Shown piece by piece: positions 40,601 to 63,781 of a DNA stretch of 64,000 nt. A program made the translations under genes and the position numbers. The DNA lies in NCBI GenBank assembly GCA_041660565.1, contig JBAZWC010000001.1, forward strand, positions 238,481 to 302,480, given 5' to 3'. Every line of letters begins with the position of its first letter. Positions within the stretch are counted from its first letter, which is position 1. This DNA comes from Patescibacteria group bacterium. GTDB taxonomy: Bacteria > Patescibacteriota > UBA1384 > CAJBMM01. The notes beneath the pieces were generated by a model. That model searched no databases. It saw only the letters and a program-made list of their open reading frames with translations, and was not told the origin of the DNA.

Positions 40601-40601
40601 A

Positions 40602-41240: not shown

Positions 41241-41287
41241 GACACATCAACCATATCGTGCCGAGACGATCACCACCAACCAACAAC

Positions 41288-41357: not shown

Positions 41358-41424
41358 CAAAAAAAGTCCGTGTTACGCTCGAACAAAAAATCCGTCACCC
41401 GTCATCTGTTTTCCATTATCCGCT

Positions 41425-42069
41425 TCACTGTTTTTCGGGGCAGATTGGGGTTAGCCCGGCGGCAACTCGAGTAGCTTGCGTGGCCGCATCATACTGACAG
41501 CCAATTGTATAATAATGTGTATTCACGTAGCTATCAGCACTTAAAACATACGTTTCGCGTGCGAGATCATGGCAGCCACCATTGGAATATGTTGTAGCGC
41601 AGCTAACCGAACTATTATTTATCTCTAGTACTGACAAAATTCCATAGGCCATACTGTTGTTGGCGTTCGTTTTTTGAGTATAAACCCAATAATCATAGAC
41701 ATCGTTGGGATTTTTAGTGGCATCATTGGCTTTTGATACCAACAAACCGCCATTACATTTTCCGATTGGGTCAGATGGCAGAGTTGACGCAAATGCGGCT
41801 AGTGCCGGTAGCAATGTGGAAGTCCAGTTACTTGGTGCGCCACCCTGTGATGCACAGGAATAAACATTAGACGCGCCAGCCCCCGGATAAATCGAGTTAG
41901 CCTGTTTATAATTAACCATATTTAGACGAAGCGTCTGCATATCGTTTTTACGAGTAGCATCACGCGCTCTTAAGCGTGCAGATTTAGCGTAATTTAAAGT
42001 CATCGCGGCCAAAATGCCAATAACCGATACGACAATTAATATCTCAATTAGATTGAATGACTTACGCAT
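41425..42069 (-). CDS. type IV pilin-like protein (prepilin N-terminal domain)
   Basis: MRKSFNLIEILIVVSVIGILAAMTL class III signal/N-methylation motif; Cys pairs in the C-terminal globular part. Confidence 0.7.
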   Translation of the reverse strand: MRKSFNLIEILIVVSVIGILAAMTLNYAKSARLRARDATRKNDMQTLRLNMVNYKQANSIYPGAGASNVYSCASQGGAPSNWTSTLLPALAAFASTLPSDPIGKCNGGLLVSKANDATKNPNDVYDYWVYTQKTNANNSMAYGILSVLEINNSSVSCATTYSNGGCHDLARETYVLSADSYVNTHYYTIGCQYDAATQATRVAAGLTPICPEKQ

Positions 42070-42160
42070 ACAATTATTATAATCTGTCTCGGACAGATTA
42101 CAATAAAAATTCGAAATTCAAAGCACCAAGCACTAAATAAATTTGAAAAAAGTTCTTCTT

Positions 42161-42192
42161 GTCATTCCGGGCTTGACCCGGAATCTATATAG
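42161..42192. repeat. palindromic element type A (GTCATTCCGGGCTTGACCCGGAATCTATATAG)
   Basis: identical to the 19237 copy. Confidence 0.75.
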
Positions 42193-42211
42193 AAGAACTC
42201 TTTCATATACT

Positions 42212-42287
42212 GGATCCCGGATACTCCTTACAACCTTGCGATTGAAGTCGTTAGTTTCTATCGAAACAATCAAGTCCGGGATGACAG
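42212..42287. repeat. ~76-nt structured element type C (GGATCCCGGATACTCC ... GTTTCtatcGAAAC ... CAAGTCCGGGATGACA)
   Basis: long-range inverted ends plus internal 5-bp hairpins; second copy at 63905-63986 with compensatory changes. Confidence 0.6.
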
Positions 42288-42306
42288 CAGAATGTGTTTA
42301 TTTCGT

Positions 42307-42789
42307 TTACCCGGTAAACTTGGCAAAGTGAGCAAAGGCCTTGTTGGCGTCTGCCATGCGGTGCATATCGTCTTTTTTCTTCATCGCTGCGCCGGTGTTG
42401 TGATAAGCATCGGTAATTTCTTCGGCCAGAAACTCTGACATTGGTTTGCCTTGTTTGCCGCGAGCAGATGCAATCATCCACTTCATCGCTAAAGTTTGAC
42501 GACGAGCGCGAGGCACTTCAAACGGGATTTGATAGTTTGCGCCACCAATACGTTTACCTTTAACCTCTAACACCGGTGAGGCATTTTTGATAGCGGTATC
42601 AAACACTTCCATTGGGTCTAGGTTGGTTTTTTTGCCAATTTGCTCAAGCGCAGTATAGACAATTTTTTGGGCGACTGATTTTTTGCCATCTAGCAAAATA
42701 TAGTTGATAAACTTACCCAATGCGACGCTTTGATAAACTGGATCAGGTTGGACAATATTAATTTTAGGATGATTTCGGCCTCTTGACAT
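42307..42789 (-). CDS. rpsG: 30S ribosomal protein S7
   Basis: str-operon position; S7 pattern. Confidence 0.9.
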   Translation of the reverse strand: MSRGRNHPKINIVQPDPVYQSVALGKFINYILLDGKKSVAQKIVYTALEQIGKKTNLDPMEVFDTAIKNASPVLEVKGKRIGGANYQIPFEVPRARRQTLAMKWMIASARGKQGKPMSEFLAEEITDAYHNTGAAMKKKDDMHRMADANKAFAHFAKFTG

Positions 42790-50100: not shown

Positions 50101-50579
50101 ATAATTTTAGCGCCAAATAAGTTGCGGCCGGGCACTTCATCGTTAGCAAAAAGTACGCCATATGAGCGTACAATCTGGGTAACAACCACACGCTCAATAC
50201 CGTTAATAATAAAGGTGCCGCGTTTGGTCATCAACGGGAAATCACCCAAAAAGACATCGCTCTCTTTAATTTCACCGGTTTCTTTGTTCAACAAGCTAGC
50301 GCGAGCCTTAAATGGGGCTTTGTAAGTTAAGTTTTTGTCGCGCGCCATTTCTTCGGTAATGCGCGATTTGTCTAGGGTTGGAGAGCTAAAAGTAAGCGAC
50401 AAGCTTTTGCCGGTAAAATCTTCTATTGGATTAATCTCGTCTAAAAGCTCTTGAACACCTTGCTCAAACAACCATTTATATGAGTTCGTCTGAATTTCGA
50501 TAAGGTTTGGTAACTTGGTGGGGTTTGGATTACCGGATAAATAGATTCTTTCTGGCTTAGTGCTTGCACTTTTACTCAT
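47187..50579 (-). CDS. rpoB: DNA-directed RNA polymerase beta subunit
   Basis: 1130 aa; conserved beta-subunit blocks; agggag RBS before ATG 50579. Confidence 0.95.
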   Translation of the reverse strand: MSKSASTKPERIYLSGNPNPTKLPNLIEIQTNSYKWLFEQGVQELLDEINPIEDFTGKSLSLTFSSPTLDKSRITEEMARDKNLTYKAPFKARASLLNKETGEIKESDVFLGDFPLMTKRGTFIINGIERVVVTQIVRSYGVLFANDEVPGRNLFGAKIIPNRGAWLEVETNAKDVITVKIDRKRRINVTTFLRAFGYANDDAIRDLFKDVDTNPDHQYINATLEKDVTKSEDQAVVEVYKKIRPGDLANPEGARSFLNMLFFNNKRYDLGRVGRYRMNIRLNLQVKDVVENRILRMDDFIAIVKEVIRLNNDPTAKKDDIDHLANRRVRAVGELVQAKIRVGLLRMERIVKDRMSVSDIATVTPAQLVNSRPIMAVLQEFFASSQLSQFMSQTNPLAELGNKRTLSATGPGGLSRERAGFEVRDVHPTHYGRICPIETPEGPNIGLVGYLASYGRVNDYGFIESPYRKVEQIDGKTKVSDKIDYLDAATEERHIIAPASAPIDKDGYFTEVRTLVRRFGEPAVEDTKKIQYIDVSPKQILGISASLIPFIEHDEAARALMGANMQRQAVPVIVPQSPVVGTGMEYEAAYDSGQIIIADESGTVLESTAHHITVLEDDTKEKKVYKLQKFVRSNQATCINQRPIVDVEQHVVKGQVIADSSATDKGELALGQNVLVAFMSWGGGNFEDAIIISERMLHRDRFTSIHIEKYVCEVRDTKLGPEVITQDIPNVSEEALSNLDESGIVRIGAEVETGDILVGKITPKGETELSAEEKLLRAIFGEKAKDVRDASLRLPHGERGKVVEIKLFNKDQGDELPAGVYQQVEISVAQLRKIAVGDKLAGRHGNKGVISTILPVEDMPYMPDGTPVDIILNPLGVVSRMNLGQILETHLGWAANTLNIKVASPVFEGLSWEQIQTYLEKAKLPKTGKIQLFDGRSGAGFDHTTTTGINYIMKLSHLVDDKMHARSVGPYSMITQQPLGGKAQFGGQRFGEMEVWALEAYGAAHTLQEMLTVKSDDTVGRSKVYEAIIKGDPIQKPSIPESFNVLVKELQSLGLSVQLLSDEDAKNFEIHLEEAKKAMAPVSDTGETLEEILNEPVGGMIEDEEAVDKLVTEIGSDDELSEPVAAAEEA

Positions 50580-51035
50580 CACATTTCTCCCTTTGTTATC
50601 GAAACTATATTATTTATATATATTAGATTTGGGTGATAATACGCATCACAGTTTGTCATTTCGACTCCCTCCGGGCGTAGTCTACGGGCAGAGCCTCGAG
50701 CGTTGTCTCGAGGGTGGAGAAATCTTCATAAAGAGTTCTCCTCGGTTCCGTTCTCTGTCCTCTGTCATCTGTTTTCCGAATTTACACAAAACGGCCGGTT
50801 CTGCTTGGATAGCAGAAACAGCCTGCTTAATGTCAGGACTTAAGCCGAAATTATTACCATGAGGCTCCGACGTTTGGCTAATCTATATTTAGGCTATCAA
50901 AAGTTTGATAGCTTGTCAACCCCCTGGCAACGAGGGGTTGCCAAAATTTTAAATTTTAAATTTTAAATTTGAAATTGGTCGAATTTTTGTTTTTAGATAG
51001 TCTTTCACCCGGATTGTCATTCCGGGCTCGACCCG

Positions 51036-51120
51036 GAATCTATATAAATAGAACATCCATACGCAGTTCAAATTATAAATTTCAAAATGTAAATTCACCC
51101 ACCCGCCTTGCTCTTTACTC
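51036..51120. repeat. composite element: type A palindrome + AACATCCATACGCAGT + AT-rich AAATTTCAAAATGTAAATT
   Basis: near-identical composite at 52266-52348. Confidence 0.7.
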
Positions 51121-51190
51121 TTATATATGTTATTATATTGGCATACTGAGCGCCATTGCTCAGAATTCGGTTCACAATAAGGAGTCCGTG

Positions 51191-51481
51191 ATGCGACACG
51201 CTCAAGGCGGGAAAATCCGAGGCAAGCACACGAGCATCATCGACGAGGCCGAGTCGCTGATTAAGGCGGTGGACGGCCTGGCGTGCGTTACTGGAGTGAG
51301 TCTTGGATTCATCCAGCACACCAAAGGGCGCCCAGTCCCGAAGAACCTCAAGTTCCTTGACGTGGATGCCGGGCTGCAACTCACCGTTCGCGCCCCAAAG
51401 ACGGTTCAGACGCTGATTGTCTATACCAGCGACCGAACCGGCACGGCAAAAGCGCTTTGCGAGGCCTTCTACAAGAAGTGA
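51191..51481 (+). CDS. GC-rich small hypothetical protein (96 aa)
   Basis: taaggag RBS + ATG 51191; ~58% GC; ends in a terminator shared with the next cassette. Confidence 0.4.
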   Translation: MRHAQGGKIRGKHTSIIDEAESLIKAVDGLACVTGVSLGFIQHTKGRPVPKNLKFLDVDAGLQLTVRAPKTVQTLIVYTSDRTGTAKALCEAFYKK

Positions 51482-51505
51482 CCTCGCGCCCATCACCATC
51501 CACCA

Positions 51506-51548
51506 GGCCGGCAGTCCACCACGGACTCCCGGCCTAATTCTTTGCTTA
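51506..51548 (+). terminator. rho-independent terminator ggccggcagtccaccacggactcccggcc + taattctttgc
   Basis: nested GC hairpin + T-rich tail; duplicated verbatim at 52046-52090. Confidence 0.6.
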
Positions 51549-51556
51549 TTTATCTT

Positions 51557-51598
51557 GTCATTCCGGTCCGCCGGCTGGCGGATAATCCGGAATCTACA
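51557..51598. repeat. palindromic element type A variant with extended loop (GTCATTCCGGtccgccggctggcggataaTCCGGAATCTACATA)
   Basis: same stem as type A; loop forms its own hairpin. Confidence 0.65.
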
Positions 51599-51696
51599 TA
51601 AAAAGAATCATTCCAAATGTTTTAAAATTAAAAATTAAAAATTTAAAATTTTGCTTATGTCTATCCCCCATCACAATATCGAGTCCAACATTCGTC

Positions 51697-51725
51697 TTGA
51701 CATGATTATATTATTGTAGTATATC
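51697..51725 (+). promoter_or_regulatory. promoter TTGACA-N17-TATATC
   Basis: cttgacatgattatattattgtagtatatc upstream of RBS aaaggg and ATG 51759. Confidence 0.5.
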
Positions 51726-51758
51726 TAAATTATCCTGCAAGTCGAAAGGGTTAGTCCG

Positions 51759-51947
51759 ATGCCAGAGAGAGACACGCAGTCCCGCAGTGGCAGTATCGAA
51801 GTGACAGTGGGCTCCGGCCGCGATGGCGGCACCGGCCAGTCGACGACCGACATGCTGATCATCGATCACGACAGCCGCGACGGTAGCCACGACCACGTGG
51901 TCATCAGCGAGTCCGGCGAGACGCTGCACGACACCACCCGCAAGTAG
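51759..51947 (+). CDS. GC-rich small acidic low-complexity protein (62 aa), hypothetical
   Basis: ~63% GC ORF with its own promoter, RBS and the duplicated terminator. Confidence 0.3.
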   Translation: MPERDTQSRSGSIEVTVGSGRDGGTGQSTTDMLIIDHDSRDGSHDHVVISESGETLHDTTRK

Positions 51948-52045
51948 GAAGTGCACGGAGGGCTAACGCTCACACCGACACTTCCTGGGCAGATACCTCT
52001 ATCGGAGGCGTCTGCCTGTAATCATAGAACAGGGCCTCACCAAAG

Positions 52046-52090
52046 GCCGGCAGTCCACCACGGACTCCCGGCCTAATTCTTTGCCAATTT
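52046..52090 (+). terminator. second copy of the ggccggcagtccaccacggactcccggcc terminator
   Basis: identical 29-nt hairpin + taattctttgcc. Confidence 0.6.
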
Positions 52091-52102
52091 TTGTTTTCCC
52101 CT

Positions 52103-52348
52103 GTCATTCCGGATTTAATCCGGAATCTATTCCTATGGTGTCATTCCCGCGAAGGTGGGAATCCAGCCTATAAAAAACCGTCTTTCTTCTGGATCCCCGA
52201 ATAAAATGTCGGGGATGACAATTTAGTCAAAACCGTGCTCAAAAGAGAACCGTCCCCTATCCTTTGTCATTCCGGGCTCGACCTGGAATCTATATAGATA
52301 AAACTTCCATACACAGTAAAAATTAAAAAATTTAAAATTTAAAATTCC
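52103..52348. repeat. cluster of palindromic elements: type A (52103-52132), type B (52139-52175), type D ATCCCCGaataaaatgtCGGGGATGACA (52192-52224), composite type A + AT-rich (52266-52348)
   Basis: each has a perfect 7-8 bp inverted repeat; type B is near-identical to 19276-19312. Confidence 0.7.
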
Positions 52349-53094
52349 ACGGTCTTAACCGCCTCGGTGTAACCACAATAATCACAACTTGGATTGGCTT
52401 CTGGAATACTATCACTATTCAAACACTCATGTGCTTTAAGCAACGTGCCATCTATCCAACTGTCACTGCCCTTATACGCAATTAGCGTAATATCAAACTC
52501 TAACTTGGCGTCAAACGCGCTTTTGTCTGTGCGCCCGTTGCAATACACAAAATAGCCGGTATCAGAAACCTTGTAACCATTTTGCCTCAAGAGCCACTGA
52601 TACACCTCCATCTGCCGCTTATACCCGTCTTGCCACTCTTTATTAAGCTCGGTTATTTCCTCGGCTTTAGAGGTAGATTTATAATCCACCACAATATATT
52701 CACCTTGTGAGTTCTGCCACAAATCGTCAATTGCACCAAAGACTAAAAAGTTGGTTTTGGGATGCAAAAACTGCACGCCGGTAAAGTTATGCCGCCATTT
52801 TTCTAAATCTTCATGCGCCACCGGCACCGCATCTACTCCGTATTTCTGAATCAGCGGATGTTTGCTACCTTTAGCACGGTAGATATCGAATTCGAGTTTT
52901 AACAGGTGGTCAACGGCGGAGTTTAGGGCAAATGGGAATCCGGGTGGTCTGCCAACCCCTAGCCGGCGGTCTAGGTAGAAACACCGCGGGCATTCGGTAA
53001 ATAGGTCAATTTTGCTGCGGGATAACTTAAACGGCTCTGACGAATTAGGATCGTACAAGCCTTTTACTCGTTGTGGGGTGTAATATTCGTACAT
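52339..53094 (-). CDS. PD-(D/E)xK nuclease, Cas4/RecB-like with FeS-type cysteines
   Basis: GAIDDLW ... IVVDYKST (D...D-x-K); Cys at C35-x2-C38 and C225...C238-x2-C241; 4 nt after the upstream gene. Confidence 0.6.
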   Translation of the reverse strand: MYEYYTPQRVKGLYDPNSSEPFKLSRSKIDLFTECPRCFYLDRRLGVGRPPGFPFALNSAVDHLLKLEFDIYRAKGSKHPLIQKYGVDAVPVAHEDLEKWRHNFTGVQFLHPKTNFLVFGAIDDLWQNSQGEYIVVDYKSTSKAEEITELNKEWQDGYKRQMEVYQWLLRQNGYKVSDTGYFVYCNGRTDKSAFDAKLEFDITLIAYKGSDSWIDGTLLKAHECLNSDSIPEANPSCDYCGYTEAVKTVEF

Positions 53095-53097
53095 GAT

Positions 53098-55914
53098 TTA
53101 TAATTCTTTCTTAAAATCTAATTTCCTGGCTCTCTGCCGCAACGCCTCTTTACCACCCTCGAGCACATCAATTATCCTGTCTCTGATTTCTATATTTTCA
53201 ATAGAACCGGTTAGGTAATCAAAGTTATATTTTCCCGCGCTATGTCTTGAATTACTTGATACCAACACCTCTTCTGAATCAGCACAAACAACCAAACTTC
53301 CGTTATGAGAAACAATAATAATTTGCCTATCCTCCTTTTCGGACTTTATAAAGTTGACAAGGTCAGTCGCTACGCCACCAACGTCTAAGTCATCTTCAGG
53401 CTGATCTATTAATATAGGATACTTTTCGTCATCAAATCTAAATACCAACTCGAGCAAGGCAATTGCTTTTTGCCCTCCTGTCATATCCTTAAAAGCCGTG
53501 TCATTCTCCTTGGTTTTTACCGAGTTAAGATAATCAATCTCGTATCGGTTCTTTATTAATTGGGAAATTACCTGTGAAACATCAGATGCGTCAACCTTGA
53601 TTTTAATCTTGTTATTCACGAGATTAACTATTACTTTCCTAAGAGTATCATTACTTAACTGAGCAGTACTCTCACCAAAGAATTGAGTAATATCTGGTTC
53701 CTGCTTTAAGCTTGCGTCTGTGTCACGGGTGTTAATGTTTCGCTCCACGAACCTCTTTAGATCTTCGCTATTATATTCTGTGACAATATCAATATTCAGG
53801 AATGTAAATAGGTCATCAAACCGCACGGTTTCAAATACTGTTTTACGCTGATAATCATACTCTTTGTATATGTTGATTAAGGAATCGATTGCCTCTTTTT
53901 GCTGTACGTCTGATTGTTGAAGAATCTTTGTAAGTTCATCAATTTTTTTAATCGTATCCTGAAGTCCTGCTAGCTCCTTAGTCAATGTCTCGAGGGCCGT
54001 ATTTAGTTTGATTTTCTCATTGAGTGTACTAACGATCGCGCTATTCTCCTTGATAACTGTTTCGCAACTGTTAATTTCAGTTTTAATACTATCAATCTCT
54101 GCTTTTATTAGAACACTCAAACTTTCTTTTCCTTTTCTGACCAATTCATCGCGAATTAATTTCTGTCTCTCGAGTGAGAGTCTGCTAAATTCCTGGTTTG
54201 ATACATAGACTCCTGCGCCCGTCTTATCAAGAGTCTCAAGGATTGTTTTGTCCTGAGACAGCAGCAGAAGGAATTTCTGATTATCAGCAATGAGGCTCTT
54301 AGCATCCGAGTATTCTTTAATTTCCTCATCAGATATAGATGTGCTACCTGAGACCTTATATTTTTTAATTTCAACATTTTTATTTGCAATTTCTTTTTCA
54401 ATCTCAATTTTCGATCCTTGTTTTCTTATAAGAAGTGCGGTTTCGTTATTAGTAGATTTGGCTGATAGCAAGCTTTCAATTAATGCCTCTGCTTTAACTT
54501 TGTTATTTGAAGTTAACTCTTCGTAAACTTGAATCGCATTCGCAAACAATGAATGCTTTTTAAGTAATCGGGTTAAGAACTGATCCCTTTCTGCCGCTTT
54601 ATCCCCATCGTCATACGCTAAGGAACTCAAATAATTTTGGGGTATATAAAAAACGCTTTTTGGGCTGTCATTGCTACCATGATCTTCCTGCCCATCAACC
54701 CATATAACTTTCACCGAATCTAATGGATACAGATTGGCGGGCTTATCTTTTTCAGTAAATTGTGCTGGATCGACATTATGCGCGATATTTCTTAGCAACG
54801 TAGACTTCCCGCTACCGCGAACACCGATGATTGAGTTAAGATCCTGGTTAAACACAACAGTTTTGTCCTGTTGATCAGCGTTCTTGTATGTAGCTCTATC
54901 AATTATTATCCGCCCTGACTTACTATCGCCAGGATTTCTTTCCTGGATTCGTACTCTATCCTTTGGTTCCCATAAAACCTGTTTTAAACCTTCAAAACTT
55001 GTATCCGCTTTTATCCAGCAAAATAGATTATTATCTGGATTAAATAATTTTGCTTCCGTATGGGCATCGCATCCGTGAACGCAAGGTTTTAATGATCCGC
55101 ATTTACTAATAACTGTTTCCCTGTCATCGGTTTTTTCTCCCAGAAAGTATCGTCTATCTTCAGGATTGCCGGAAAAGATTGCATTAGAAATAGTATAAAT
55201 AGATTTTCTTACAGCATCGAGTTGGCTTGCAGCATCATTTTCAAATAGATCGTAATGTTTTTGTAAACCCGAAGCACCATCTACACAGGAATTACTAACT
55301 ACAATAATTACCTTCTCGCGGAAGTTGGCGTTAGCTTCATAAAGGGCATGTAATTGGCTGTGATCGACGACAAACGAATCTATCCCTTTTTTGTAAGCGG
55401 CTACATCACTTAAGTTTGAATCGATAAATTTTCCCAACCCTATAAACCCAGCTTGATTCATTTTGAACTTTCGGCCAGGCTCAGCAGCATACTCTATAGA
55501 ATTAAATAGATCGTTGTCTATATTTGCAACAAAATCAGGATTAAGTATACAGTGTATATTCACGAGCCGCCCATGATCTGTAGAGGGCATCATTCGCAAC
55601 TCGATGTTTGGTATAATAAATATTTCTTTGATCTTCACTTTTTCCTCTGGTAAGAATACAGGCTCGCCAGATTCGTTTGTTTCATGGAAACTGTCAATAT
55701 TATCGACGAACTCTTTAACCTTTTTGTAGTTATCAATATTAAAATAGTCAGTAATTCCAATTACGACGATTTCTTTTGATAACGCTTCCCTTAATAGAGT
55801 CGTGCAAAACTGGCCGAAGGATTGACTTGTAAACCTATCATTTTTAGCAGTATCTTTTGTATGAACATGTAGATCCCACCTTGCCCATATTGAACCGCGA
55901 GGATTGTTACGCAT
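53098..55914 (-). CDS. PHP-domain phosphoesterase fused to SMC/Rad50/SbcC-like ABC ATPase with long coiled coil (Ppl-like)
   Basis: N-term WDLHVHT (PHP motif); GVRGSGKSTLL Walker A; ~450-aa coiled-coil; MTGGQKA signature; PILIDQPEDDLD Walker B/D-loop; IIIVSHN H-loop. Confidence 0.7.
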   Translation of the reverse strand: MRNNPRGSIWARWDLHVHTKDTAKNDRFTSQSFGQFCTTLLREALSKEIVVIGITDYFNIDNYKKVKEFVDNIDSFHETNESGEPVFLPEEKVKIKEIFIIPNIELRMMPSTDHGRLVNIHCILNPDFVANIDNDLFNSIEYAAEPGRKFKMNQAGFIGLGKFIDSNLSDVAAYKKGIDSFVVDHSQLHALYEANANFREKVIIVVSNSCVDGASGLQKHYDLFENDAASQLDAVRKSIYTISNAIFSGNPEDRRYFLGEKTDDRETVISKCGSLKPCVHGCDAHTEAKLFNPDNNLFCWIKADTSFEGLKQVLWEPKDRVRIQERNPGDSKSGRIIIDRATYKNADQQDKTVVFNQDLNSIIGVRGSGKSTLLRNIAHNVDPAQFTEKDKPANLYPLDSVKVIWVDGQEDHGSNDSPKSVFYIPQNYLSSLAYDDGDKAAERDQFLTRLLKKHSLFANAIQVYEELTSNNKVKAEALIESLLSAKSTNNETALLIRKQGSKIEIEKEIANKNVEIKKYKVSGSTSISDEEIKEYSDAKSLIADNQKFLLLLSQDKTILETLDKTGAGVYVSNQEFSRLSLERQKLIRDELVRKGKESLSVLIKAEIDSIKTEINSCETVIKENSAIVSTLNEKIKLNTALETLTKELAGLQDTIKKIDELTKILQQSDVQQKEAIDSLINIYKEYDYQRKTVFETVRFDDLFTFLNIDIVTEYNSEDLKRFVERNINTRDTDASLKQEPDITQFFGESTAQLSNDTLRKVIVNLVNNKIKIKVDASDVSQVISQLIKNRYEIDYLNSVKTKENDTAFKDMTGGQKAIALLELVFRFDDEKYPILIDQPEDDLDVGGVATDLVNFIKSEKEDRQIIIVSHNGSLVVCADSEEVLVSSNSRHSAGKYNFDYLTGSIENIEIRDRIIDVLEGGKEALRQRARKLDFKKEL

Positions 55915-58750
55915 TAGTAATCCTTAATAGTCCGGGCACTGTTGAGTGAACCGTTATCCTATCAGTCGGGACAATAATGTATCTCCATGGTTTTATAATG
56001 CCATTAGATCCAATATTTCTCGAAACCAGATCACAATACTTCTCAGCTGTCTTCTTTTTCTCTTGAACATTATGGGCCAGTATTTCACTTTCTGGTTTCA
56101 CTTCAACCATTACAATTTCATGCTCCAATTCGACTACAAAATCTGGTTCATATCTATGTTGCGATTCACCGTTTTCGTCACGCCAGTATAAGCCTTCAAA
56201 CTGATTGGGTGCCGGTCGAAGCCAATCTATGACAGATCCATCCCTTTCTAGAAGATACGCTAAGCGAACTTCGTCCGAGGAATCAAATCGATATTTAGAA
56301 TGACAGGCTTTTTGAAACTTGCCATAAAGCAGTTTGGCGTTAAATGTATCCACCTGCGAATCAAGAAAAACAACCTTTTCATCAAAAGATTCGGAAATAT
56401 TGTACTGTTCCAGATATGGTTTTGGTTCTCGTATATCCGATTCAAGATATCCTTCAGACTTTAGCTCCTTATGTTCTAAAATCTGCTTATAGATATCCTC
56501 GGCGATTGAACGTGCGTTACTTTCAATTATTAAGGCCAAATTATCCTCGTCGATTGCCTTTTTACGGTAATATACCACTGCTTGTTCCGCCAACTTGAGA
56601 AGTAATGGTTTTTGAGCTGGGTCATCATAATCAACCAACGGAAAGTCCAATAGTGCAGCGATTATCGTGCTTTGTGGGGATTGCCTATAATGCGCTCCAA
56701 AACTACTGATTCTCGTCACCTCGCTCACCCTGCGACCAGGGACTTCTTCTCCGAATAGGTTTTCCTCATGCTCATTCTGTAGTTGCTCTTCAAGAATAGC
56801 CCGTTCGTTGGTATAGGTACGCAACATTCCAAAACTTGTATCTAAGTCAAAATGTTCAATGGATAGCTCTCCAAAATGTGGAGTGAGAATTAGGCGCGGA
56901 ATGGGTATATTTCTTTTTTCCATTGTTGCGGCAGATTCTTTTGCAATCTTAGAAAGTTCATCTTTTACCTCATCGCTGAAAGAACCAAACAGAGTATCGG
57001 GGCCAAATGAGATCTCTGTGGGCGCACCAGATTCCTGACCGTAATAATTAGAAAATGTGAGGCTCTTGATCGTCTCTCTAGTCAACCCGCCAACAATTTC
57101 ATCTTTCTTAGCCTCGGCGAATCTTTCTCTGACAGATTCATCCATACTTTCACTTTGAGGGAAGCTAGCAACAATCGCTTCAACCTTCTCGTCTACTGCC
57201 CGCATCACCAAATTATTTTGGGTTATCTCCCTCATTAGAACATCAAGAATCACCGGTTGGACTTCGGCTAATACTTTAACCTCTTTTGCCTCGCGTTCAG
57301 ATATCTGCTCTACCTGTCCTTGAATAAGTGGTGAATCTTTAGCAAGCGCAACTACTTTAGAATACTGTTCATGGGCAACAAGCACTAATCTATCCACCAA
57401 AGGAACGCCGGTTCGTTCTCCGTAAGGCAATCGCAAACCGCGCCCAATGGTTTGCTCAGTTAGAATTGCAGCGGCTGATTCACGTAGGGGCGCGATGGTA
57501 TAGACGTTTGTAACATCCCAGCCCTCTTTAAGCATGTTGACATGAATCACAATCTCAATCGGATTGTCGGGATGCTCAAGAGAGATTAGTTTCTCAATAT
57601 TTTCATCAGCCTCATCCCCGCGAAGTCTTGTATGTATTTCAATTACTTTTCCGGCAAACTCTCCGGCACGGAAGTTCTCACTTTCAATCAGGTTTCTTAG
57701 CTCTCCTGCATGCGTTGTGTCTTTAGCCACAACCAGCATAACTGGCTTTACAACCGATCTATTGTTTTCTAGCGCATATTCTTTTAAGGCATTCTTAGCT
57801 CGTTCGTGAAAAAAGGCGGCTAGTTGTAATTTACGGGCATCAGTATCAATCGAATCCGGATCAAATTGGCTGAAATCCACATCAGCTTCAGTACCGATCC
57901 ACGGATCCTTAACTAGTTTACCTCGAATGGCATCACCAAGATTATATGAATACAAAACATTTTTCATTCTGGTCTGAGTTGCATTTCTGCCTGTGCCTTG
58001 AGTGCCCAAATAAGGCGTTGCAGTCATCTCCAAGCCAAATAGAGGATCGAGTATATCAAGTGCCCCAAGCGCGGCATCAGCGTGGTAATGATGGGCTTCA
58101 TCAAGCATGACCACTAAATCGTCGTGTTCCTTAAGGTAATCAAAATACGACTCGCCAGCTGTTTCCCAAGCTTTCGTTATACCTCGTTCATTGGTCATGT
58201 CTCTCTGGGCAAACTGCTGAACATTAAAGATATTTATCTCAATCTGGTTGCCAAAAAGAGTGTACCCGCGCTGTTTTGTATAGTTATCAACTGTAATTAC
58301 CTTGGCTGTGTTGATATTTATCTCTTGGATACCTTTGAAAACATACTTTGGGTTATTTGCTTTACTAAAATCATCAAATAGCTTTCGGTAGATAGTTAGG
58401 TTGGGGGCAACTATCAAAAAGTGCTGGATGTTATAAACCAAGTATAAATACGCTACAAAAGCACCCATTAATCTGGTTTTACCCACTCCAGTGGCCAGAG
58501 CGAAAGTGTAAGCGGGGAATTTTCGCTCAAATTCCTCAAACCCGCGCGCTTCAGGGACAGTGCTAAAATATTCTCTGCTTGTTTCCAATATTTCAGCAGT
58601 ATCGCCTCGATTCGTTTTCTTCATGCGGGCTAACACCCTTTGCCCAGCTTCTGATTGTAAGTAATTAGCAAATATCTCTAAACTTTTGAGCTGCGGATCG
58701 CGCAGGCTCATTGCATTGTTGATATATACAAGTGCTTCTTGTGGAGTCAT
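55907..58750 (-). CDS. Type III restriction Res-like protein: DEAH helicase + C-terminal PD-(D/E)xK endonuclease
   Basis: FALATGVGKTRLMGAF (motif I), VVMLDEAHHY (DEAH), TIGRGLRLPYG (motif VI), C-term YEPDFVVELEHEIVMVEVKPE. Confidence 0.75.
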   Translation of the reverse strand: MTPQEALVYINNAMSLRDPQLKSLEIFANYLQSEAGQRVLARMKKTNRGDTAEILETSREYFSTVPEARGFEEFERKFPAYTFALATGVGKTRLMGAFVAYLYLVYNIQHFLIVAPNLTIYRKLFDDFSKANNPKYVFKGIQEININTAKVITVDNYTKQRGYTLFGNQIEINIFNVQQFAQRDMTNERGITKAWETAGESYFDYLKEHDDLVVMLDEAHHYHADAALGALDILDPLFGLEMTATPYLGTQGTGRNATQTRMKNVLYSYNLGDAIRGKLVKDPWIGTEADVDFSQFDPDSIDTDARKLQLAAFFHERAKNALKEYALENNRSVVKPVMLVVAKDTTHAGELRNLIESENFRAGEFAGKVIEIHTRLRGDEADENIEKLISLEHPDNPIEIVIHVNMLKEGWDVTNVYTIAPLRESAAAILTEQTIGRGLRLPYGERTGVPLVDRLVLVAHEQYSKVVALAKDSPLIQGQVEQISEREAKEVKVLAEVQPVILDVLMREITQNNLVMRAVDEKVEAIVASFPQSESMDESVRERFAEAKKDEIVGGLTRETIKSLTFSNYYGQESGAPTEISFGPDTLFGSFSDEVKDELSKIAKESAATMEKRNIPIPRLILTPHFGELSIEHFDLDTSFGMLRTYTNERAILEEQLQNEHEENLFGEEVPGRRVSEVTRISSFGAHYRQSPQSTIIAALLDFPLVDYDDPAQKPLLLKLAEQAVVYYRKKAIDEDNLALIIESNARSIAEDIYKQILEHKELKSEGYLESDIREPKPYLEQYNISESFDEKVVFLDSQVDTFNAKLLYGKFQKACHSKYRFDSSDEVRLAYLLERDGSVIDWLRPAPNQFEGLYWRDENGESQHRYEPDFVVELEHEIVMVEVKPESEILAHNVQEKKKTAEKYCDLVSRNIGSNGIIKPWRYIIVPTDRITVHSTVPGLLRITNA

Positions 58751-58753
58751 GGC

Positions 58754-60526
58754 CTAGTCGCTTTCCTCATCATTTTCTAATTCTTCCATAGCTGTTTCCT
58801 TAATTGGCAGTAAGTATTCTTTCTTGCCAAAATGACAGGCTTTCAGCACTGATTGTGGAATCTTCTTGATCGTAATTCGACTATCAATTTTTTCCGCGCC
58901 GGGCTCAAACTTCTTGGGACAAATAATCAATGATTCGCCATCGGAAAGATGGCCCACAATCTGTTGAACCATTCCGCATGTTAAGAGTTGGGTTGTGACA
59001 TAAAGGTAGTTCTTACCTTGGCCCATACCGTGTTTCCAATATTCAGTTTGGCTTGGCTGATAAGTGAAATTCATCAGCTTGCACATGGCTTTAATAAGCT
59101 TTGTATCGTTGTAATAATCGTCAATTATTGGGTTACCAAACTCATCTTTGATGATAAAACTTGGGGCTAACTCATAGAATTTGTATGCACCTCCACCTTG
59201 CCATTCTAAGGTTTTACTGATACCACCTTGATCTAGACCGCTAATGACCTTATCTAATCTTACCTTGCAGTGTGTGAATGCATGATCGCCCATTTCAATT
59301 CCAAGATATCTACGTCTCATTTTATGTGCGACAGCGCATGTTGTACCAGAGCCCAGGAAAGAATCTAGTACGATATCATCCTCATTTGTAGACATTCGTA
59401 TTATTCTCTGTAGCAGTGATTCCGGCTTTTTACCGTTTGGGAAAAGTACCCCGCCTTCTTTTGTAACATTAATCCAGCTAAAACCATCCCAGTAGGTACC
59501 AATTTTTTCCTTTTTGTATATCTTTCCTTTTAAAAGTGTTGCGGTATCTTTGAGCCAAATCACAAGAACTTTTTGTTTTCCCATAAAAATAATATCTATT
59601 TTATTATCTTTATTTCTTCCGGACTTGGGGCTATAAGAAGCAATGAACATATTATTTTCACTATCCGTAGCATCCCAAACTCTGGTTCTGATCGATGTTT
59701 GAGCATTTGTTGTGGTAATTATTTTGTCAAAATATTTTATATACACTTCATTCTCAGAAATGCCTTCAAGCTGAGCTATTTGTTTTACGCTTTTTATGTC
59801 GTAACTTTTAACTTCGGATATTACTATATCATCGCCGCTTCCGTCCTTAATGATTTTATACGGAACGACATTATCAATCTTATAAAGTACGGAGGTGTAT
59901 TTAAAACTTTTTTCGTCATCTTTCATTCGAGCAATATAACTCATCAGCTCTGTTTCCTTATAAACAGGTTCAAACGGCAAAAAAGAATTTGTTTCTTTGC
60001 AATATACTAATATATATTCAATGTTCTTCTTTAGCCTTATATCTTCACCGCCCCCACTGGCACCGGCACTAACTTTTGAATTCACCGAGATAGTATTGAT
60101 AAAGTTATTTCTTCCAAAAACTTCATCCATTAATACCCTAAGATACGGTTGCTCAACATCATCAATTTGAATAAAAATAATTCCATCTTCTTTAAGAAGC
60201 ATCCTCAATAATTCTAGCCTTGGTTTCATCAAGGATAGCCAAGTACTATGCTCTACGCTGTCATCGTAGTACTCAAATGCGTTACCGGTGTTATATGGCG
60301 GATCAATATATATACATTTTATTTTACCCTCATATTCAGGGAGTAGAGCTTTTAGTGCGAGAAGATTATCCCCGTGAATAATCATATTCTCGGTATTTGG
60401 ATCATTGGCACAATTTGAAAGCTCAGGGTTTTCTTCTAAGATTCTTGGCTCGATGTTAGCAATATCGTACTCGGGATTATTTTTCCCAATCCAGGTTAGT
60501 TCTAGTTTTTGTTTGTTGTTTGTCAT
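58754..60526 (-). CDS. beta-class N6-adenine/N4-cytosine DNA methyltransferase (Type III Mod-like)
   Basis: CIYIDPPYNTG (motif IV) N-terminal to DSFLGSGTTCAVA (motif I); IIHGDNLLALKAL. Confidence 0.8.
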   Translation of the reverse strand: MTNNKQKLELTWIGKNNPEYDIANIEPRILEENPELSNCANDPNTENMIIHGDNLLALKALLPEYEGKIKCIYIDPPYNTGNAFEYYDDSVEHSTWLSLMKPRLELLRMLLKEDGIIFIQIDDVEQPYLRVLMDEVFGRNNFINTISVNSKVSAGASGGGEDIRLKKNIEYILVYCKETNSFLPFEPVYKETELMSYIARMKDDEKSFKYTSVLYKIDNVVPYKIIKDGSGDDIVISEVKSYDIKSVKQIAQLEGISENEVYIKYFDKIITTTNAQTSIRTRVWDATDSENNMFIASYSPKSGRNKDNKIDIIFMGKQKVLVIWLKDTATLLKGKIYKKEKIGTYWDGFSWINVTKEGGVLFPNGKKPESLLQRIIRMSTNEDDIVLDSFLGSGTTCAVAHKMRRRYLGIEMGDHAFTHCKVRLDKVISGLDQGGISKTLEWQGGGAYKFYELAPSFIIKDEFGNPIIDDYYNDTKLIKAMCKLMNFTYQPSQTEYWKHGMGQGKNYLYVTTQLLTCGMVQQIVGHLSDGESLIICPKKFEPGAEKIDSRITIKKIPQSVLKACHFGKKEYLLPIKETAMEELENDEESD

Positions 60527-60530
60527 AGCT

Positions 60531-63470
60531 TTATATTACCTTAAACCGGATGGAAAATAAGGGCGTGAGCGTTGTTTTCTGCTTAAGTTGAGCTTCTACT
60601 CTTTCAAGAAGCCCCTCTTTTTTGGTTTCAACCTCATCCTGTGATTGATAAAGTTTCATGCGCATATTGTTCCGTTTCTTTTCAGTGTCTTTAATCTCGC
60701 GTTGAAGTTTAACTTTTTCTGCTAGATTTAAGACCTTTTTCGCATTTGTCTTCATTGTTTTTATATCAATATCGAGTCGCTTCAGCTCTATTTCTAAACT
60801 TTTTTTCATATCCTCTGCCCATTTATCGAGCTTGTCTACTTCATCTTCAAAGAACTCACCATTACGTTCGGCAATATCAATAGTGAGACCATTTACCTTT
60901 TCCTGTTCCAATTGTTGTACTTCTGCATTTACTGTTACTACATTATTCTGGGCAACCTCTGCCTTCAAGGAAAATAGCTTTTTCGCCACATCTTCATCAA
61001 TTTGAGTCCCATCATCCGTTAGAGCAGTTAATATGAGATTATCTTCGGTTTCAAATGAGCCAATGGTGAGCTCTGATACTTGCAGATAACCAGAAGTGCC
61101 TACCAGCTCACTTACTGGGGTAATAATCTGTCCGTGGTTTGAATAATCGAATACGAGTTCGGCGCTGGGTAGATTAATTGCTTTGACTTCACGCAAAATA
61201 TGCTCGGCCAGTGGATGGCCTGGGCGATAGATATGCGCGTCATCAATATTTTTGCCAATTTTATATGGGCCTTCTTCAATGTCTTCACCGGGGAATGGAT
61301 TATTTTTTAGTGTAAAAGAGTATTCGCCATCAGCATATATTGCTCTGTTTCCTAAATAGTGCTGTGAAACATCCCAGAGCCACTTTTCATATGTTTCTAG
61401 AAAAGCCTTGCTCTCTCGTAAATTGATTTTTAGTTTTTCATGAACATCAGCATCGAAGTTCTCCAGAAGCTTTTCTTTAGCGCCACGCATACCTTCTTGA
61501 ATCGACTCGTCCATTTCTGTCTGCAGGGCATCAAAAGCAGTGTTTATCTCTACCTCTGTACGGCAAGACTGATATATTGCAGCGATTCGTTTTTCAAAAT
61601 CTACACCAGATTCAATACTTCCAAGTACTTCATCACTTGCCCCAAATACCCCTTTAAAAAGTTTGAATTTTTGATCAAGAAGTTCGTAAACGCGCTGATC
61701 GGCAGCGTTCTTGCGGTTTACAAAATTTACCACAACCACATCGTGCTTTTGGCCATAACGATGACAGCGACCGATTCTTTGCTCAATTCTTTGCGGGTTC
61801 CACGGGAGATCATAATTAATAACTAGTGAACAGAATTGTAGGTTAATGCCTTCAGCTGCAGCTTCCGTCGCAATCATTATTTCCGCATCAGATTTGAAAT
61901 AGTCTACCAGAGCTGCACGTAGGTCTGCGGTCTTTGACCCTGTAATTTTGTCACTATCAGCGTTTTTCTTAAGCCATTCAGCGTAAATATCTTTGGATTT
62001 CTGATCATTATTAGAGCCGTTAAATAGCAGTATTTTATCTTTGTAGCCGATATCTGATAGTAAATCCCATAGATATTTTTGAGTGATAGTAGATTCAGTA
62101 AAGATTACCGCTTTTTTCTGGGCTCCAAGCGTTGCGGTCATTTCAAAACCTTTTTCTAATGCAATAAGCAGGGATTCTCCTTTGGAATTTTTGAAAATTG
62201 CTTTGGCCAAATCTCTAAACTTTTCCAAATCCTTTTTTTCTGTTTTGATATGAGGAATATCTTCAAGCGTGTATTTCTTCTTAGCTTTTCCTTTACCCTC
62301 AGGCTCATCTTCCTCATCATCAATCCACTCGTCTGCTGTATCCGCAAGCGCCTCATAATTTTCAGCAAGATCGAACGGGAGTTCATCATTTATAGTCTTG
62401 GACTCTTCTCGGATCTCTTCCTCCAATTTTTCAAGTTTATAAACCAGGCCATTCAAGGTGCTGGCAATTGCAAAAGAAGATGAGGCGAGAAGCTTACGCA
62501 AAATTAGCGTCATAAGTTGACGTTGGCTGTATGGGAGCGCGTATAGCTTTGGCCGCTGTAAATATTCTGACATACCATCATATAGCTCAATCTCTTGATC
62601 GGTAGGCACGTAATCTTGGGTGATTGGCTTGCGATCACGAAAATTTATGTATTCCAAAACCTGACGTCGTAAGGTGCGGATACAGATTGGTCTCAATCTG
62701 GCGCGCAAATCAGCGAACATTTCCTGCTTTGGCTCTACTAAACCTAACTCCCCATCGTAAATATCTTGTTCACGGGATACTTTAGCGTAGTTTGCTTTGA
62801 AGCTTTCTAGATCACCGAAGATATGGTCATCAATAATACTGGTAAGGCCGTATAGCTCTAATAATGAGTTTTGGAGTGGAGTCGCCGTAAGTAATAATTT
62901 GGGATATTCCTGAATTGCGTCCTTAATTTCTCTTGCAATTTTGTTGCTTGTTTTATAGACATTGCGCAGTCGGTGTGCCTCATCGATTACTACCAAGTCG
63001 AAAGTTGTCTGGCGGATATACGCTGATTTACCTTTGGCAAAATGGTATGAGCAAATAACAATCGCGTCTTCTTGGCTGAAGGGATTAAGATTGCCGGCTT
63101 TTATGATTTGATTAAATGATTTAGTCTCCAGAATTAGTGAGGGTAGAAAGAATTTTTCTTGGAGCTCACTGTTCCACTGCTTTCTAAGGCTTGATGGAAC
63201 TATTAAAAGTATTTTTCTTTTTCGTTCAGCCCACTTTTGAGATAAAACCAAACCAGCTTCAATGGTTTTCCCCAAACCAACCTCGTCTGCAAGAATTGCT
63301 CCTTTTGATAAGGGTGATTTAAAGGCGAACAGAGCGGCCTCTATCTGGTGAGGGTTTAGATCAACCTGTGCGTTTGAAAGCGTAGAAGATAGTTTTTCAA
63401 GACTATTTGACGGGCTGCGCTTGGTCAGCTCGTAAGCAAAGTATTTTGCATGATAATCGGTTAATTTCAT
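60531..63470 (-). CDS. SNF2-family helicase (DrmD-like)
   Basis: ILADEVGLGKTIEA, VVIDEAHRLRN, LLLTATPLQNS, NPQRIEQRIGRCHRYGQKHDVVVVNFV. Confidence 0.85.
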   Translation of the reverse strand: MKLTDYHAKYFAYELTKRSPSNSLEKLSSTLSNAQVDLNPHQIEAALFAFKSPLSKGAILADEVGLGKTIEAGLVLSQKWAERKRKILLIVPSSLRKQWNSELQEKFFLPSLILETKSFNQIIKAGNLNPFSQEDAIVICSYHFAKGKSAYIRQTTFDLVVIDEAHRLRNVYKTSNKIAREIKDAIQEYPKLLLTATPLQNSLLELYGLTSIIDDHIFGDLESFKANYAKVSREQDIYDGELGLVEPKQEMFADLRARLRPICIRTLRRQVLEYINFRDRKPITQDYVPTDQEIELYDGMSEYLQRPKLYALPYSQRQLMTLILRKLLASSSFAIASTLNGLVYKLEKLEEEIREESKTINDELPFDLAENYEALADTADEWIDDEEDEPEGKGKAKKKYTLEDIPHIKTEKKDLEKFRDLAKAIFKNSKGESLLIALEKGFEMTATLGAQKKAVIFTESTITQKYLWDLLSDIGYKDKILLFNGSNNDQKSKDIYAEWLKKNADSDKITGSKTADLRAALVDYFKSDAEIMIATEAAAEGINLQFCSLVINYDLPWNPQRIEQRIGRCHRYGQKHDVVVVNFVNRKNAADQRVYELLDQKFKLFKGVFGASDEVLGSIESGVDFEKRIAAIYQSCRTEVEINTAFDALQTEMDESIQEGMRGAKEKLLENFDADVHEKLKINLRESKAFLETYEKWLWDVSQHYLGNRAIYADGEYSFTLKNNPFPGEDIEEGPYKIGKNIDDAHIYRPGHPLAEHILREVKAINLPSAELVFDYSNHGQIITPVSELVGTSGYLQVSELTIGSFETEDNLILTALTDDGTQIDEDVAKKLFSLKAEVAQNNVVTVNAEVQQLEQEKVNGLTIDIAERNGEFFEDEVDKLDKWAEDMKKSLEIELKRLDIDIKTMKTNAKKVLNLAEKVKLQREIKDTEKKRNNMRMKLYQSQDEVETKKEGLLERVEAQLKQKTTLTPLFSIRFKVI

Positions 63471-63523
63471 TTCAAGCTTAATATACTCTTTTTGTTCGTG
63501 AATGTTAAATCAGCTTATTCTGG

Positions 63524-63781
63524 TTAACTACGTCGGTTGTCATAAAATCCAGACGGAGATGGCGACGCCGAGATCTGTATTCCTGATGTAGAAGCGATGC
63601 GAGCACCACCATAGTGATGCGTTGAGTATTGCGCAATCTCAACATGTTCAAAATACCCAATTATTTTGCAATTTGAGCTATAGCACCATTTACATATTAA
63701 CTCCCCAGCTGATGTGCCAGCACTGAATATTATGATGGCCGCGCCGCATGTAAAACACCAAACAATTGGATTAATTTTCAT
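63524..63781 (-). CDS. small Cys-rich putative membrane protein upstream of the SNF2 gene; may be spurious
   Basis: 85 aa, one TM helix, 53-nt gap to the SNF2 start on the same strand. Confidence 0.25.
   Translation of the reverse strand: MKINPIVWCFTCGAAIIIFSAGTSAGELICKWCYSSNCKIIGYFEHVEIAQYSTHHYGGARIASTSGIQISASPSPSGFYDNRRS

Follow-up and report, generated by a model that had tools for sequence, protein, structure and literature searches.

Which kind of defence do five closely packed genes beside rpoB in a patescibacterial genome encode, and did they come together as one system or as several? The genes lie in a window of 64,000 nucleotides (nt) from a Patescibacteria group bacterium (assembly GCA_041660565.1, contig JBAZWC010000001.1, positions 238,481 to 302,480 of the forward strand), and all positions below are counted within that window. 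An earlier note on this DNA had proposed one hybrid DISARM-like/Type III-like system. Its Type III core and its DrmD-like SNF2 protein were recovered in the present analysis, but the operon is probably modular and not integrated. The operon is likely a composite anti-phage/anti-plasmid locus, formed by the joining of three separately mobile modules that are probably co-transcribed: a Type III restriction-modification (R-M) system joined by an SNF2 protein, and two further, accessory layers, namely a TrlF-family PHP-SMC protein and a Cas4/RecB-like nuclease. The observations behind this reading are the order of the genes, their domains and intact active sites, their distribution as modules and the variability of the target-recognition domain (TRD).

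Gene content of the operon

An open reading frame (ORF) call of the interval 52339-63470 reproduced exactly the five co-directional minus-strand genes described earlier. ORFs of 979, 590, 947, 938 and 251 amino acids (aa) fill the interval, which holds no further ORF of at least 200 aa:

60531..63470, minus strand: SNF2-family ATPase, DrmD/RapA-like, 979 aa, first gene of the SNF2-Mod-Res cassette
58754..60526, minus strand: Type III Mod-type DNA methyltransferase, 590 aa (N6_N4_Mtase, PADLOC MTase_III)
55907..58750, minus strand: Type III Res-type helicase-nuclease, 947 aa (ResIII, TnsA-like, PADLOC REase_III)
53098..55914, minus strand: TrlF-family protein, PHP plus SMC/Rad50-like ATPase, 938 aa (NCBIfam NF045780)
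52339..53094, minus strand: Cas4/RecB-like PD-(D/E)xK nuclease, 251 aa (PDDEXK_1)

From SNF2 onwards, the first two gaps measure 4 and 3 nt, the third junction is an overlap of 8 nt and the last gap is again 3 nt, in agreement with the tight packing noticed before. Hidden Markov model (HMM) searches with Pfam, PADLOC and NCBIfam bore out the domain assignments of all five genes, and a motif check found the catalytic motifs intact in 5/5 proteins. The GC content of the genes ranges from 0.37 to 0.45, compared with 0.42 for the whole window. No catalogued system was found to equal the five-gene set.

The SNF2-Mod-Res cassette

The first protein matches the Pfam domains SNF2-rel_dom (1e-32) and Helicase_C (2e-21) and carries a Walker A motif GLGKT at residue 65, DEAH at 163 and QRIGR at 564; its C-terminal ~300 aa contain no Pfam domain. 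Its description as DrmD-like is sustained by the PADLOC DrmD model PDLC02619 (1e-206). The NCBIfam model DISARM_DrmD_b aligns over its full length with 691.6 bits, below the cut-off of 950, and further matches were obtained with the models of HmaA (3e-48) and DrmA (4e-35, generic helicase core only). RapA is the nearest solved relative by sequence (1e-33). Homologues form more than 120 clusters (90% identity) at 71-86% identity to the window protein, and those with a named source are mostly Patescibacteria, with one from Ignavibacteria.

The methyltransferase matches Pfam N6_N4_Mtase (7e-45) and, over its full length, PADLOC MTase_III (7e-144). It has no match to Pfam N6_Mtase, and no DrmMI model is among the best 25 of its 60 PADLOC matches. 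The SNF2 and methyltransferase genes had been regarded as the drmD-drmMI pair of class 1 DISARM, which is not supported, since the methyltransferase is a Type III Mod and not DrmMI-like. Its DPPY motif (residue 75) precedes FLGSG, an FxGxG motif (390). The N- and C-terminal parts of Mod are 52-98% identical to those of its relatives, but residues ~151-350 only 4-26%; such conserved flanks around a nearly unrelated centre are the signature of TRD swapping in a working R-M system. Res matches Pfam ResIII (6e-20), Tn7_TnsA-like_N (5e-6) and PADLOC REase_III (2e-120), with the motifs GVGKT (88), DEAH (217) and QTIGR (433) and a C-terminal PD-(D/E)xK site made up of PDF (869) and EVK (883). The only PDB sequence match is the Res subunit of EcoP15I (9e-6). 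Both proteins thus have the make-up of Type III enzymes, Mod with DPPY, FxGxG and a central variable TRD, and Res with a PD-(D/E)xK domain at the C-terminus of a superfamily 2 (SF2) DEAH ATPase, its gene starting 3 nt after mod. The two-gene limit of Type III systems does not apply, as in this clade a conserved SNF2 gene always stands before mod.

The order SNF2-N6_N4_Mtase-ResIII/TnsA-like occurs without TrlF on a 929-kb metagenome contig (L171/L172), in a metagenome-assembled genome (MAG) of Moranbacteria (L173) and in a MAG of Ignavibacteria (L174). SNF2 identity to the window is 81-86% (L171, L173, L174) and Res identity 79-80% (L172, L173, L174); a small helix-turn-helix (HTH) gene abuts SNF2 in L173 and L174. 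The same SNF2, Mod and Res trio is present on the IMG/VR contigs L180, L182 and L184. At 45-52% SNF2 identity the cassette is found on plasmids, mostly conjugative, of Salmonella, Klebsiella, Rhizobium, Cupriavidus, Deinococcus and a planctomycete, where the annotation reads no more than 'SNF2-related protein / site-specific DNA-methyltransferase / DEAD/DEAH box helicase'. Several of these copies enclose foreign genes: IS256 and Abi in Salmonella (NZ_CP100694.1, 6232-16247; HTH-SNF2-IS256-Abi-hypothetical-MTase-helicase) and DUF262 in Rhizobium (HTH-SNF2-MTase-DUF262-helicase), while GmrSD, RhuM or a Septu-like ATPase are embedded in further SNF2-Mod-Res copies. SNF2-Mod-Res is a self-contained cassette that recurs without TrlF and the nuclease, and it is a widespread Type III variant. 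Within it the SNF2 protein equals Res in conservation, and its gene always comes first.

The Ignavibacteria MAG (GCA_019187405.1, L174/L175 10001-18513) contains HTH-SNF2-Mod-Res with SNF2 81% and Res 79% identical to the window, values that suggest a recent transfer between phyla when set against a host from the Candidate Phyla Radiation (CPR). A gene fusing ParB_N with N6_N4_Mtase, accompanied by a terminase or serine recombinase, recurs near the cassettes of this analysis (L004, L173, L179), pointing to prophage-like CPR elements as the seat of many loci.

The TrlF-family protein

The 938-aa protein scores 468 bits against the NCBIfam model of the TrlF family AAA-like ATPase (NF045780, cut-off 350), with residues 6-932 aligned to profile positions 1-943 of 944. 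An identity with Ppl was rejected: the Ppl model NF042955 reaches 106.6 bits, with a cut-off of 1000, and aligns only with residues 555-930, and Ppl models match the C-terminal half at 1e-26 to 1e-30. The first 8 nt of trlF lie within the end of res. A PHP phosphoesterase (residues 1-330) is followed by an SMC/Rad50-like ABC head (340-450 and 700-930) split by a coiled coil of ~240 residues. The AlphaFold (AF2) model, built on 26 homologues, has a pLDDT of 83 and displays an N-terminal PHP barrel and a split ABC head. Foldseek searches with this model retrieved the heads of Smc, MukB, JetC, Rad50, RecN and AriA, besides the PHP phosphoesterase BAD_1165 (3e0f); a PDB sequence search yielded nothing useful. 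The predicted fold has structural neighbours in both SMC/Rad50 and AriA, which leaves more than one candidate clade within the ABC ATPases. Invariant in the 26 homologues are the PHP residues H18, E105, D283 and H285 and the ATPase residues K370, Q426, D837, E840 and H870, and 90% or more of them have H16 and H121.

The TrlF relatives at 62-66% identity all follow a different cassette, i.e. a PLD-SNF2 protein (1060-1100 aa) and an MmeI/Eco57I-like methyltransferase (1045-1190 aa), on elements with portal/terminase, type IV secretion system (T4SS)/relaxase or primase/recombinase genes. SNF2-Mod-Res together with a TrlF-like gene was also encountered in a gammaproteobacterial MAG, in Corynebacterium macginleyi and in Rheinheimera. 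The TrlF proteins on other SNF2-Mod-Res cassettes (e.g. L030, L049) are only 25-33% identical to that of the window, and the association therefore arose more than once, apparently by independent recruitment.

Neighbourhoods of ~165 TrlF-family loci were surveyed by clustering and Pfam scans, with 84 co-directional genes immediately upstream, of which one protein may match several families. N6_Mtase and Eco57I were each matched by 8/84 of these genes, HsdS by 7/84, ResIII by 5/84, N6_N4_Mtase by 4/84 and HpaII by 2/84; HNH and GmrSD also occur in this position. Complete Type I systems were seen repeatedly near the loci, as were C5 methyltransferases and integrases, and many TrlF copies, e.g. 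those on Klebsiella plasmids, are without an R-M neighbour. The TrlF module moves independently of SNF2-Mod-Res.

A plasmid search retrieved 216 records with TrlF-family genes 29% identical to that of the window; Klebsiella accounts for 143 of the records, and most are conjugative. On the one record inspected, the K. pneumoniae plasmid NZ_CP091063.1 (L176, 8820-11624), the TrlF gene stands beside a Gabija-looking pair of ATP-binding protein and UvrD helicase, and an Abi gene. The papers of Aravind on BREX and phosphorothioate systems contain no mention of PHP-ABC proteins.

The Cas4/RecB-like nuclease

The 251-aa protein matches Pfam PDDEXK_1 (2e-14) and remains below the cut-offs of the Cas4 models TIGR00372 (27.5 against 65) and Pfam Cas_Cas4 (19.9 against 22.7). 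Its invariant residues are D123/D124, D137-Y-K139, Q161...Y165 and the cysteines C35, C38, C237 and C240. The structural model is of moderate quality (pLDDT 68.7); Foldseek placed it with the nuclease domains of AdnAB, Cas4 SSO0001, Exo5, MGME1 and AddB, and a PDB sequence search gave nothing useful. A CRISPR Cas4 identity was rejected on the Pfam and TIGRFAM scores, and no operon protein exceeds a Cas-family cut-off. Around the nuclease in 12 loci lie genes of R-M and of other defence systems, with no cas genes among them; no scan of the window for CRISPR arrays was made.

The nuclease is found in the sampled loci mostly in CPR genomes, at the ends of R-M cassettes. It closes HsdM-HsdS-HsdR-GajA-GajB-nuclease (L179), AbiEi-AbiEii-RadC-Mod-Res-AAA_13 ATPase-nuclease (L187) and MTase-MTase-x-x-SMC-like ATPase-nuclease (L189), and is followed by a TIR gene in SNF2-RhuM-Mod-Res-RT-nuclease-TIR (L186; RT, reverse transcriptase). 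In L044 it is 74% identical to the window nuclease, with Mod-Res and a TrlF of only 27% identity upstream and a trypsin-like protease downstream. The gap from the co-directional abutting gene to the nuclease ATG is 2-6 nt, whichever gene abuts.

Such constancy next to varying cargo raises the possibility, which we consider on the unlikely side, that the nuclease is a resident CPR gene of repair, recombination or nucleotide salvage beside which defence cassettes pile up, the operon proper consisting of four genes. It would accord with the at least 8000 proteins that matched the nuclease, with the 76-84% identity of the best 120 clusters listed, from Paceibacterota, Magasanikbacteria, Taylorbacteria, Azambacteria and Parcubacteria, with a lone copy among rpsP, rplJ, rplL and dnaX (L185), with a GC content of 0.451 that resembles rpoB/rpoC and not the four upstream genes (0.37-0.42), and with its presence at 5 loci only in IMG/VR. 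However, the nuclease travelled with SNF2-Mod-Res into Ignavibacteria, where a frameshifted copy (L174, 17798-17917 + 17926-18492; 59% identical) lies 350 bp after Res without TrlF. It also lies inside a cassette, between methyltransferase and TrlF, in L006 and on a T4SS/relaxase element in L005, and the 2-6 nt gaps also count against a resident gene. An identity of 76-84% across deeply divergent CPR classes would, moreover, fit horizontal spread better than vertical inheritance. Between a shared accessory of defence cassettes and a conserved gene beside which cargo accumulates, we lean towards the accessory, which the transfer into Ignavibacteria and the position in L006 favour.

A trypsin-like serine protease (Trypsin_2, 428-431 aa) lies directly 3' of the nuclease in L001 (13572-14858), L008 (15881-17176) and L044 (8233-9519), and has weak PADLOC matches to RT-protease and LmuA models. 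Its position is held by TIR in L186 and by an S49 peptidase in L187; the window has no such gene. L044, from an 'uncultured Pseudomonadales' MAG, has the nuclease, the protease (90% identical to that of L001) and several downstream backbone genes in common with L001/L190, whereas the upstream cassette differs, a pattern that indicates either cassette exchange at a fixed slot or a mis-binned contig.

One system or several modules

Each part of the operon recurs in relatives, in three modules and not as one five-gene set. Res, the PHP-SMC ATPase and the Cas4-like nuclease had been assigned to the DrmA/B/C positions, an assignment that is not supported by the distribution of the genes: SNF2-Mod-Res recurs alone, the closest TrlF relatives follow another cassette and the nuclease ends unrelated ones.

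Several points weigh against a composite of separable modules. The synteny census comprises a few dozen loci picked by sequence search, with many short contigs, and the promoter and terminator calls at the operon ends are consensus matches only. The repeated independent joining of TrlF (window, L030, L049, L035) and the tight coupling of the genes would also fit functional integration, and the high conservation of the nuclease across varying partners could mean a host function unrelated to defence. In the accessible literature no published function of the TrlF family, and no name or study of the SNF2-Type III cassette, was found, which is not proof of absence.

As a tentative alternative, rated well short of even, TrlF and the nuclease may form an autonomous defence of ABC-ATPase sensor and nuclease effector, of the PARIS, Gabija, Septu or PrrC type, lodged at the tail of the R-M operon, triggered by anti-restriction proteins or DNA ends and possibly acting by abortive infection. 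An ABC-type ATPase directly precedes the nuclease in the window, L001, L005, L044, L187 and L189, and one gene, GmrSD or GajB, intervenes in L008 and L179. The TrlF copies without R-M neighbours on Klebsiella plasmids agree with such autonomy, and the embedding of ABC-ATPase defences is documented, including Ppl in Hma. Yet the nuclease stays 74-79% identical while the ATPase changes family (TrlF, 27%-identical TrlF, AAA_13), which is not expected of a co-evolving sensor-effector pair; it also follows RT, or Res directly, and this nuclease is present at only 6 of the ~165 TrlF-family loci.

It is doubtful that all five components form one integrated system, in which SNF2 and Mod would mark self and Res, TrlF and the nuclease would replace DrmA/B/C as the effector, all five being needed. 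The co-directional arrangement with 3-4 nt gaps and an 8-nt overlap, the DrmD score of the SNF2 protein and the recurrence of SNF2-Mod-Res with a TrlF-like ATPase in the gammaproteobacterial MAG, C. macginleyi and Rheinheimera are all compatible with it, as is the ARMADA II precedent, where all four genes, SNF2 (ArmA) and methyltransferase included, are reported essential (PMC13463889). The three-gene cassette nevertheless often lacks the other two genes, including copies whose SNF2 protein is 81-86% identical; TrlF serves a different cassette at 62-66% identity, the nuclease ends unrelated cassettes, and a Type III Mod that is not DrmMI-like stands in an operon without DUF1998, a YprA-type helicase or PLD.

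That TrlF and the nuclease are housekeeping repair genes, an SbcCD/Mre11-Rad50-like end processor and a RecB-like exonuclease next to R-M by chance, is very improbable: in its head and coiled coil TrlF is similar to Rad50, RecN and SMC, and the nuclease resembles the nuclease domains of AddB, AdnAB and Exo5, but TrlF genes are patchy, lie on plasmids, integrative elements and prophage-like regions beside R-M, Gabija-like, Abi, GmrSD, TIR and RT genes, and are divergent (closest homologue 66% identical; 1139 50%-identity clusters at E<=1e-30), a pattern unlike that of a core repair gene.

Proposed mechanism

For the composite of three modules we infer the following biochemical steps, as well as any cooperation between the modules. 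By analogy with Type III enzymes, Mod would methylate one strand of a short asymmetric host site through its swappable target-recognition region. Mod-Res would bind unmodified sites on incoming DNA, where the Res ATPase would start long-range sliding, and the C-terminal PD-(D/E)xK domain of Res would cut that DNA. The most likely task of the SNF2 protein is to load, license or boost Mod-Res on target DNA, as a translocase or remodeller of DNA, in keeping with the roles proposed for DrmD in DISARM and ArmA in ARMADA. TrlF may serve as a second layer that binds and degrades DNA ends or odd structures left by restriction, or alternatively as a reserve defence set off by a block of restriction, as PrrC is within Type I systems. 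The Cas4-like nuclease would act on DNA ends, as suggested by the Cas4/RecB family. The reading is least certain in the parts that it assigns to TrlF and the nuclease.

A more elaborate scheme, to which we give little credence, is a restriction-plus-disposal machine, in which ends made by the SNF2-assisted Type III enzyme would be captured by TrlF, Rad50/SbcC-like with PHP in place of Mre11, and resected by the Cas4-like exonuclease. If true, the nuclease would be a common 'finisher' of many CPR cassettes of R-M and ABC-ATPase genes, and might feed nucleotide salvage in auxotrophic cells. It is speculation that TrlF and the nuclease substitute for RecBCD/AddAB in the host lineage.

Surroundings of the operon and repeats in the window

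The operon is flanked by two candidate transcription signals:

63480..63508, minus strand: candidate sigma-70-like promoter TTAACA-17-TATATT, 10/12 matches (consensus match only)
52033..52048, minus strand: terminator-like hairpin, ~290 nt 3' of the nuclease gene (pattern match only)

The promoter candidate lies 10 nt 5' of the SNF2 start codon, and the count of promoter-like sites in the region is not above that of shuffled sequence. The hairpin sits in a 55-nt repeat (52044-52098) and, judged from its sequence, may mark the 3' end of the transcript. No HTH gene precedes SNF2 in the window, where the ORFs at 63505-63781 have no Pfam match and are not gene-like.

Downstream of the operon, rpoB (47187-50582) follows after 1.76 kb, with copies of a dispersed repeat throughout the gap, so that the neighbouring rpoB and the repeat-dense region were both found as described before. 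Past this repeat-rich spacer the minus-strand series continues with rpoB, rpoC, rpsL, rpsG, fusA and tuf; rplJ/rplL are absent 5' of rpoB. The region had also been called a defence island. This is valid comparatively, as the locus type is a variable defence slot in relatives, but not for the neighbours inside the window, since no defence gene other than the operon was identified in the window parts examined; upstream of the operon the window extends for only 530 nt. No direct repeat brackets the operon, the sole motif common to both flanks being the dispersed repeat TGTCATTCCGG. No integrase was found, the sole tRNA gene is at 5843-5918, and the 38-64 kb region has no Rfam match to structured RNAs. 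A look-up with the SNF2 protein for DNA past the window returned only a 6.4-kb duplicate contig.

The dispersed short repeat with the core TGTCATTCCGG, often within a palindrome ...CCGGAATGACA, is present in 14 copies in the window, compared with 0.8 expected. Its sites span 19236-63985 (e.g. 51015, 51556, 52102, 52265 and 63975) and are concentrated in intergenic gaps. It looks like a REP/MITE-type element (repetitive extragenic palindrome/miniature inverted-repeat transposable element) of this genome. The spacer between the nuclease gene and rpoB (50583-52338) holds two repeat-bounded units. Each includes an 80-nt repeat (51014-51093, 52264-52343; 86% identical) or a short-repeat copy, together with a hairpin repeat of 55 nt (51505-51559, 52044-52098; 91% identical) and a stretch of high GC content (0.55-0.59) whose ORF has no Pfam match. 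The plus strand at ~51.2-51.5 kb, within ORF 50969-51481, reads by eye MRHAQGGKIRGKHTS.... A 2.9-kb insert (39437-42307) parts rpsG from fusA in the otherwise standard rpsL-rpsG-fusA-tuf operon. Its GC content reaches up to 0.515, three short-repeat copies lie at its edges, and its ORFs are without Pfam match except for a weak response-regulator receiver match at 39576-40007.

Significance

Judged by their HMM matches, the genes of SNF2-Mod-Res would probably be reported by current tools as plain Type III R-M and an orphan DrmD-like helicase. What an SNF2-type second motor adds to an enzyme with ATP-triggered sliding is a mechanistic question, and the homologues on enterobacterial plasmids make it testable. 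TrlF attaches repeatedly to every ATP-dependent R-M type and is therefore a candidate guard or finisher of R-M; the family is accessible in cultivable hosts through the Klebsiella plasmids. CPR genomes are very small, yet 11 kb are spent here on one operon, and the highly conserved Cas4-like nuclease at the end of many cassettes may be a sign that CPR bacteria organise or exchange their defence cargo in a manner of their own.

Comparison with known systems

Type III R-M systems (EcoP15I/EcoP1I) have in common with the operon the order mod then res, the motifs and swappable TRD of Mod, and a Res that combines a DEAH ATPase with PD-(D/E)xK. Classical systems consist of two genes, whereas a conserved 979-aa SNF2 ATPase that co-varies with Res precedes mod here. 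The relatives of the window cassette are, furthermore, headed by a small HTH gene and often have extra defence genes embedded, and the similarity of the EcoP15I Res to the window Res is very weak.

Class 1 DISARM (DrmD-DrmMI-DrmA-DrmB-DrmC) and ARMADA (ArmA-ArmB-ArmC-ArmD) resemble the operon in that an SNF2/RapA-like ATPase and then a DNA methyltransferase head it. In contrast, the window operon is without a YprA/DrmA-type helicase, DUF1998, PLD and Vsr nuclease, its effector is a Type III Res, and its methyltransferase is Type III Mod-like (N6_N4_Mtase) and not PglX/DrmMI-like. None of the five proteins matches DUF1998, PLD domains or the DrmB or DrmC models. Membership in DISARM was rejected for lack of DrmA/B/C and of a DrmMI-like methyltransferase, and membership in ARMADA or another YprA-centred system for lack of a YprA-like DExH helicase with DUF1998 in the five proteins.

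Ppl is reportedly a single-gene PHP-ATPase defence, a finding credited to Gao et al. in 2020. The window TrlF is a relative, with the same N-terminal PHP and ABC-type ATPase, but scores far below the Ppl cut-off and is translationally coupled to res. Ppl has been listed as a defence system and reported embedded in Hma (SNF2-methylase) loci (PMC11232893). ABC-ATPase defences are embedded in Hma, BREX, DISARM and Type I systems and have been framed as second-line or guard defences (bioRxiv 10.1101/2024.01.29.577857). Embedded ABC ATPases of this sort (PrrC in EcoprrI; PARIS, Septu, HEC-01 to HEC-04) are alike in attaching an ABC ATPase and nuclease module to ATP-dependent R-M; unlike them, TrlF has PHP as its effector, instead of an anticodon nuclease, TOPRIM, NERD or PIN, and a long SMC-like coiled coil.

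The Fe-S RecB-like nucleases Cas4, AddB, AdnAB and Exo5 share with the fifth protein the PD-(D/E)xK core, the motifs D...D-x-K...Q-x3-Y and four cysteines split between the N- and C-termini. The cysteines of Cas4 are arranged 1+3, but those of the window nuclease 2+2 (CxxC...CxxC).

MANTIS and Hma are, like the operon, methylation-based, with a methyltransferase alongside two ATPases, one of them of the helicase type. Hma was rejected with the HmaA score of 3e-48 set against 1e-206 for DrmD and with no HmaB/HmaC among the matches listed. MANTIS requires the DUF499 AAA+ protein MtsA and the DUF3870 protein MtsB; MANTIS (Gao_RL) was rejected because neither these nor the PLD-helicase MtsD were detected in the window proteins. 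It is the cassette of the closest TrlF relatives, with PLD-SNF2, a large N6 methyltransferase and an ATPase, that loosely resembles MtsD/MtsC/MtsA of MANTIS.

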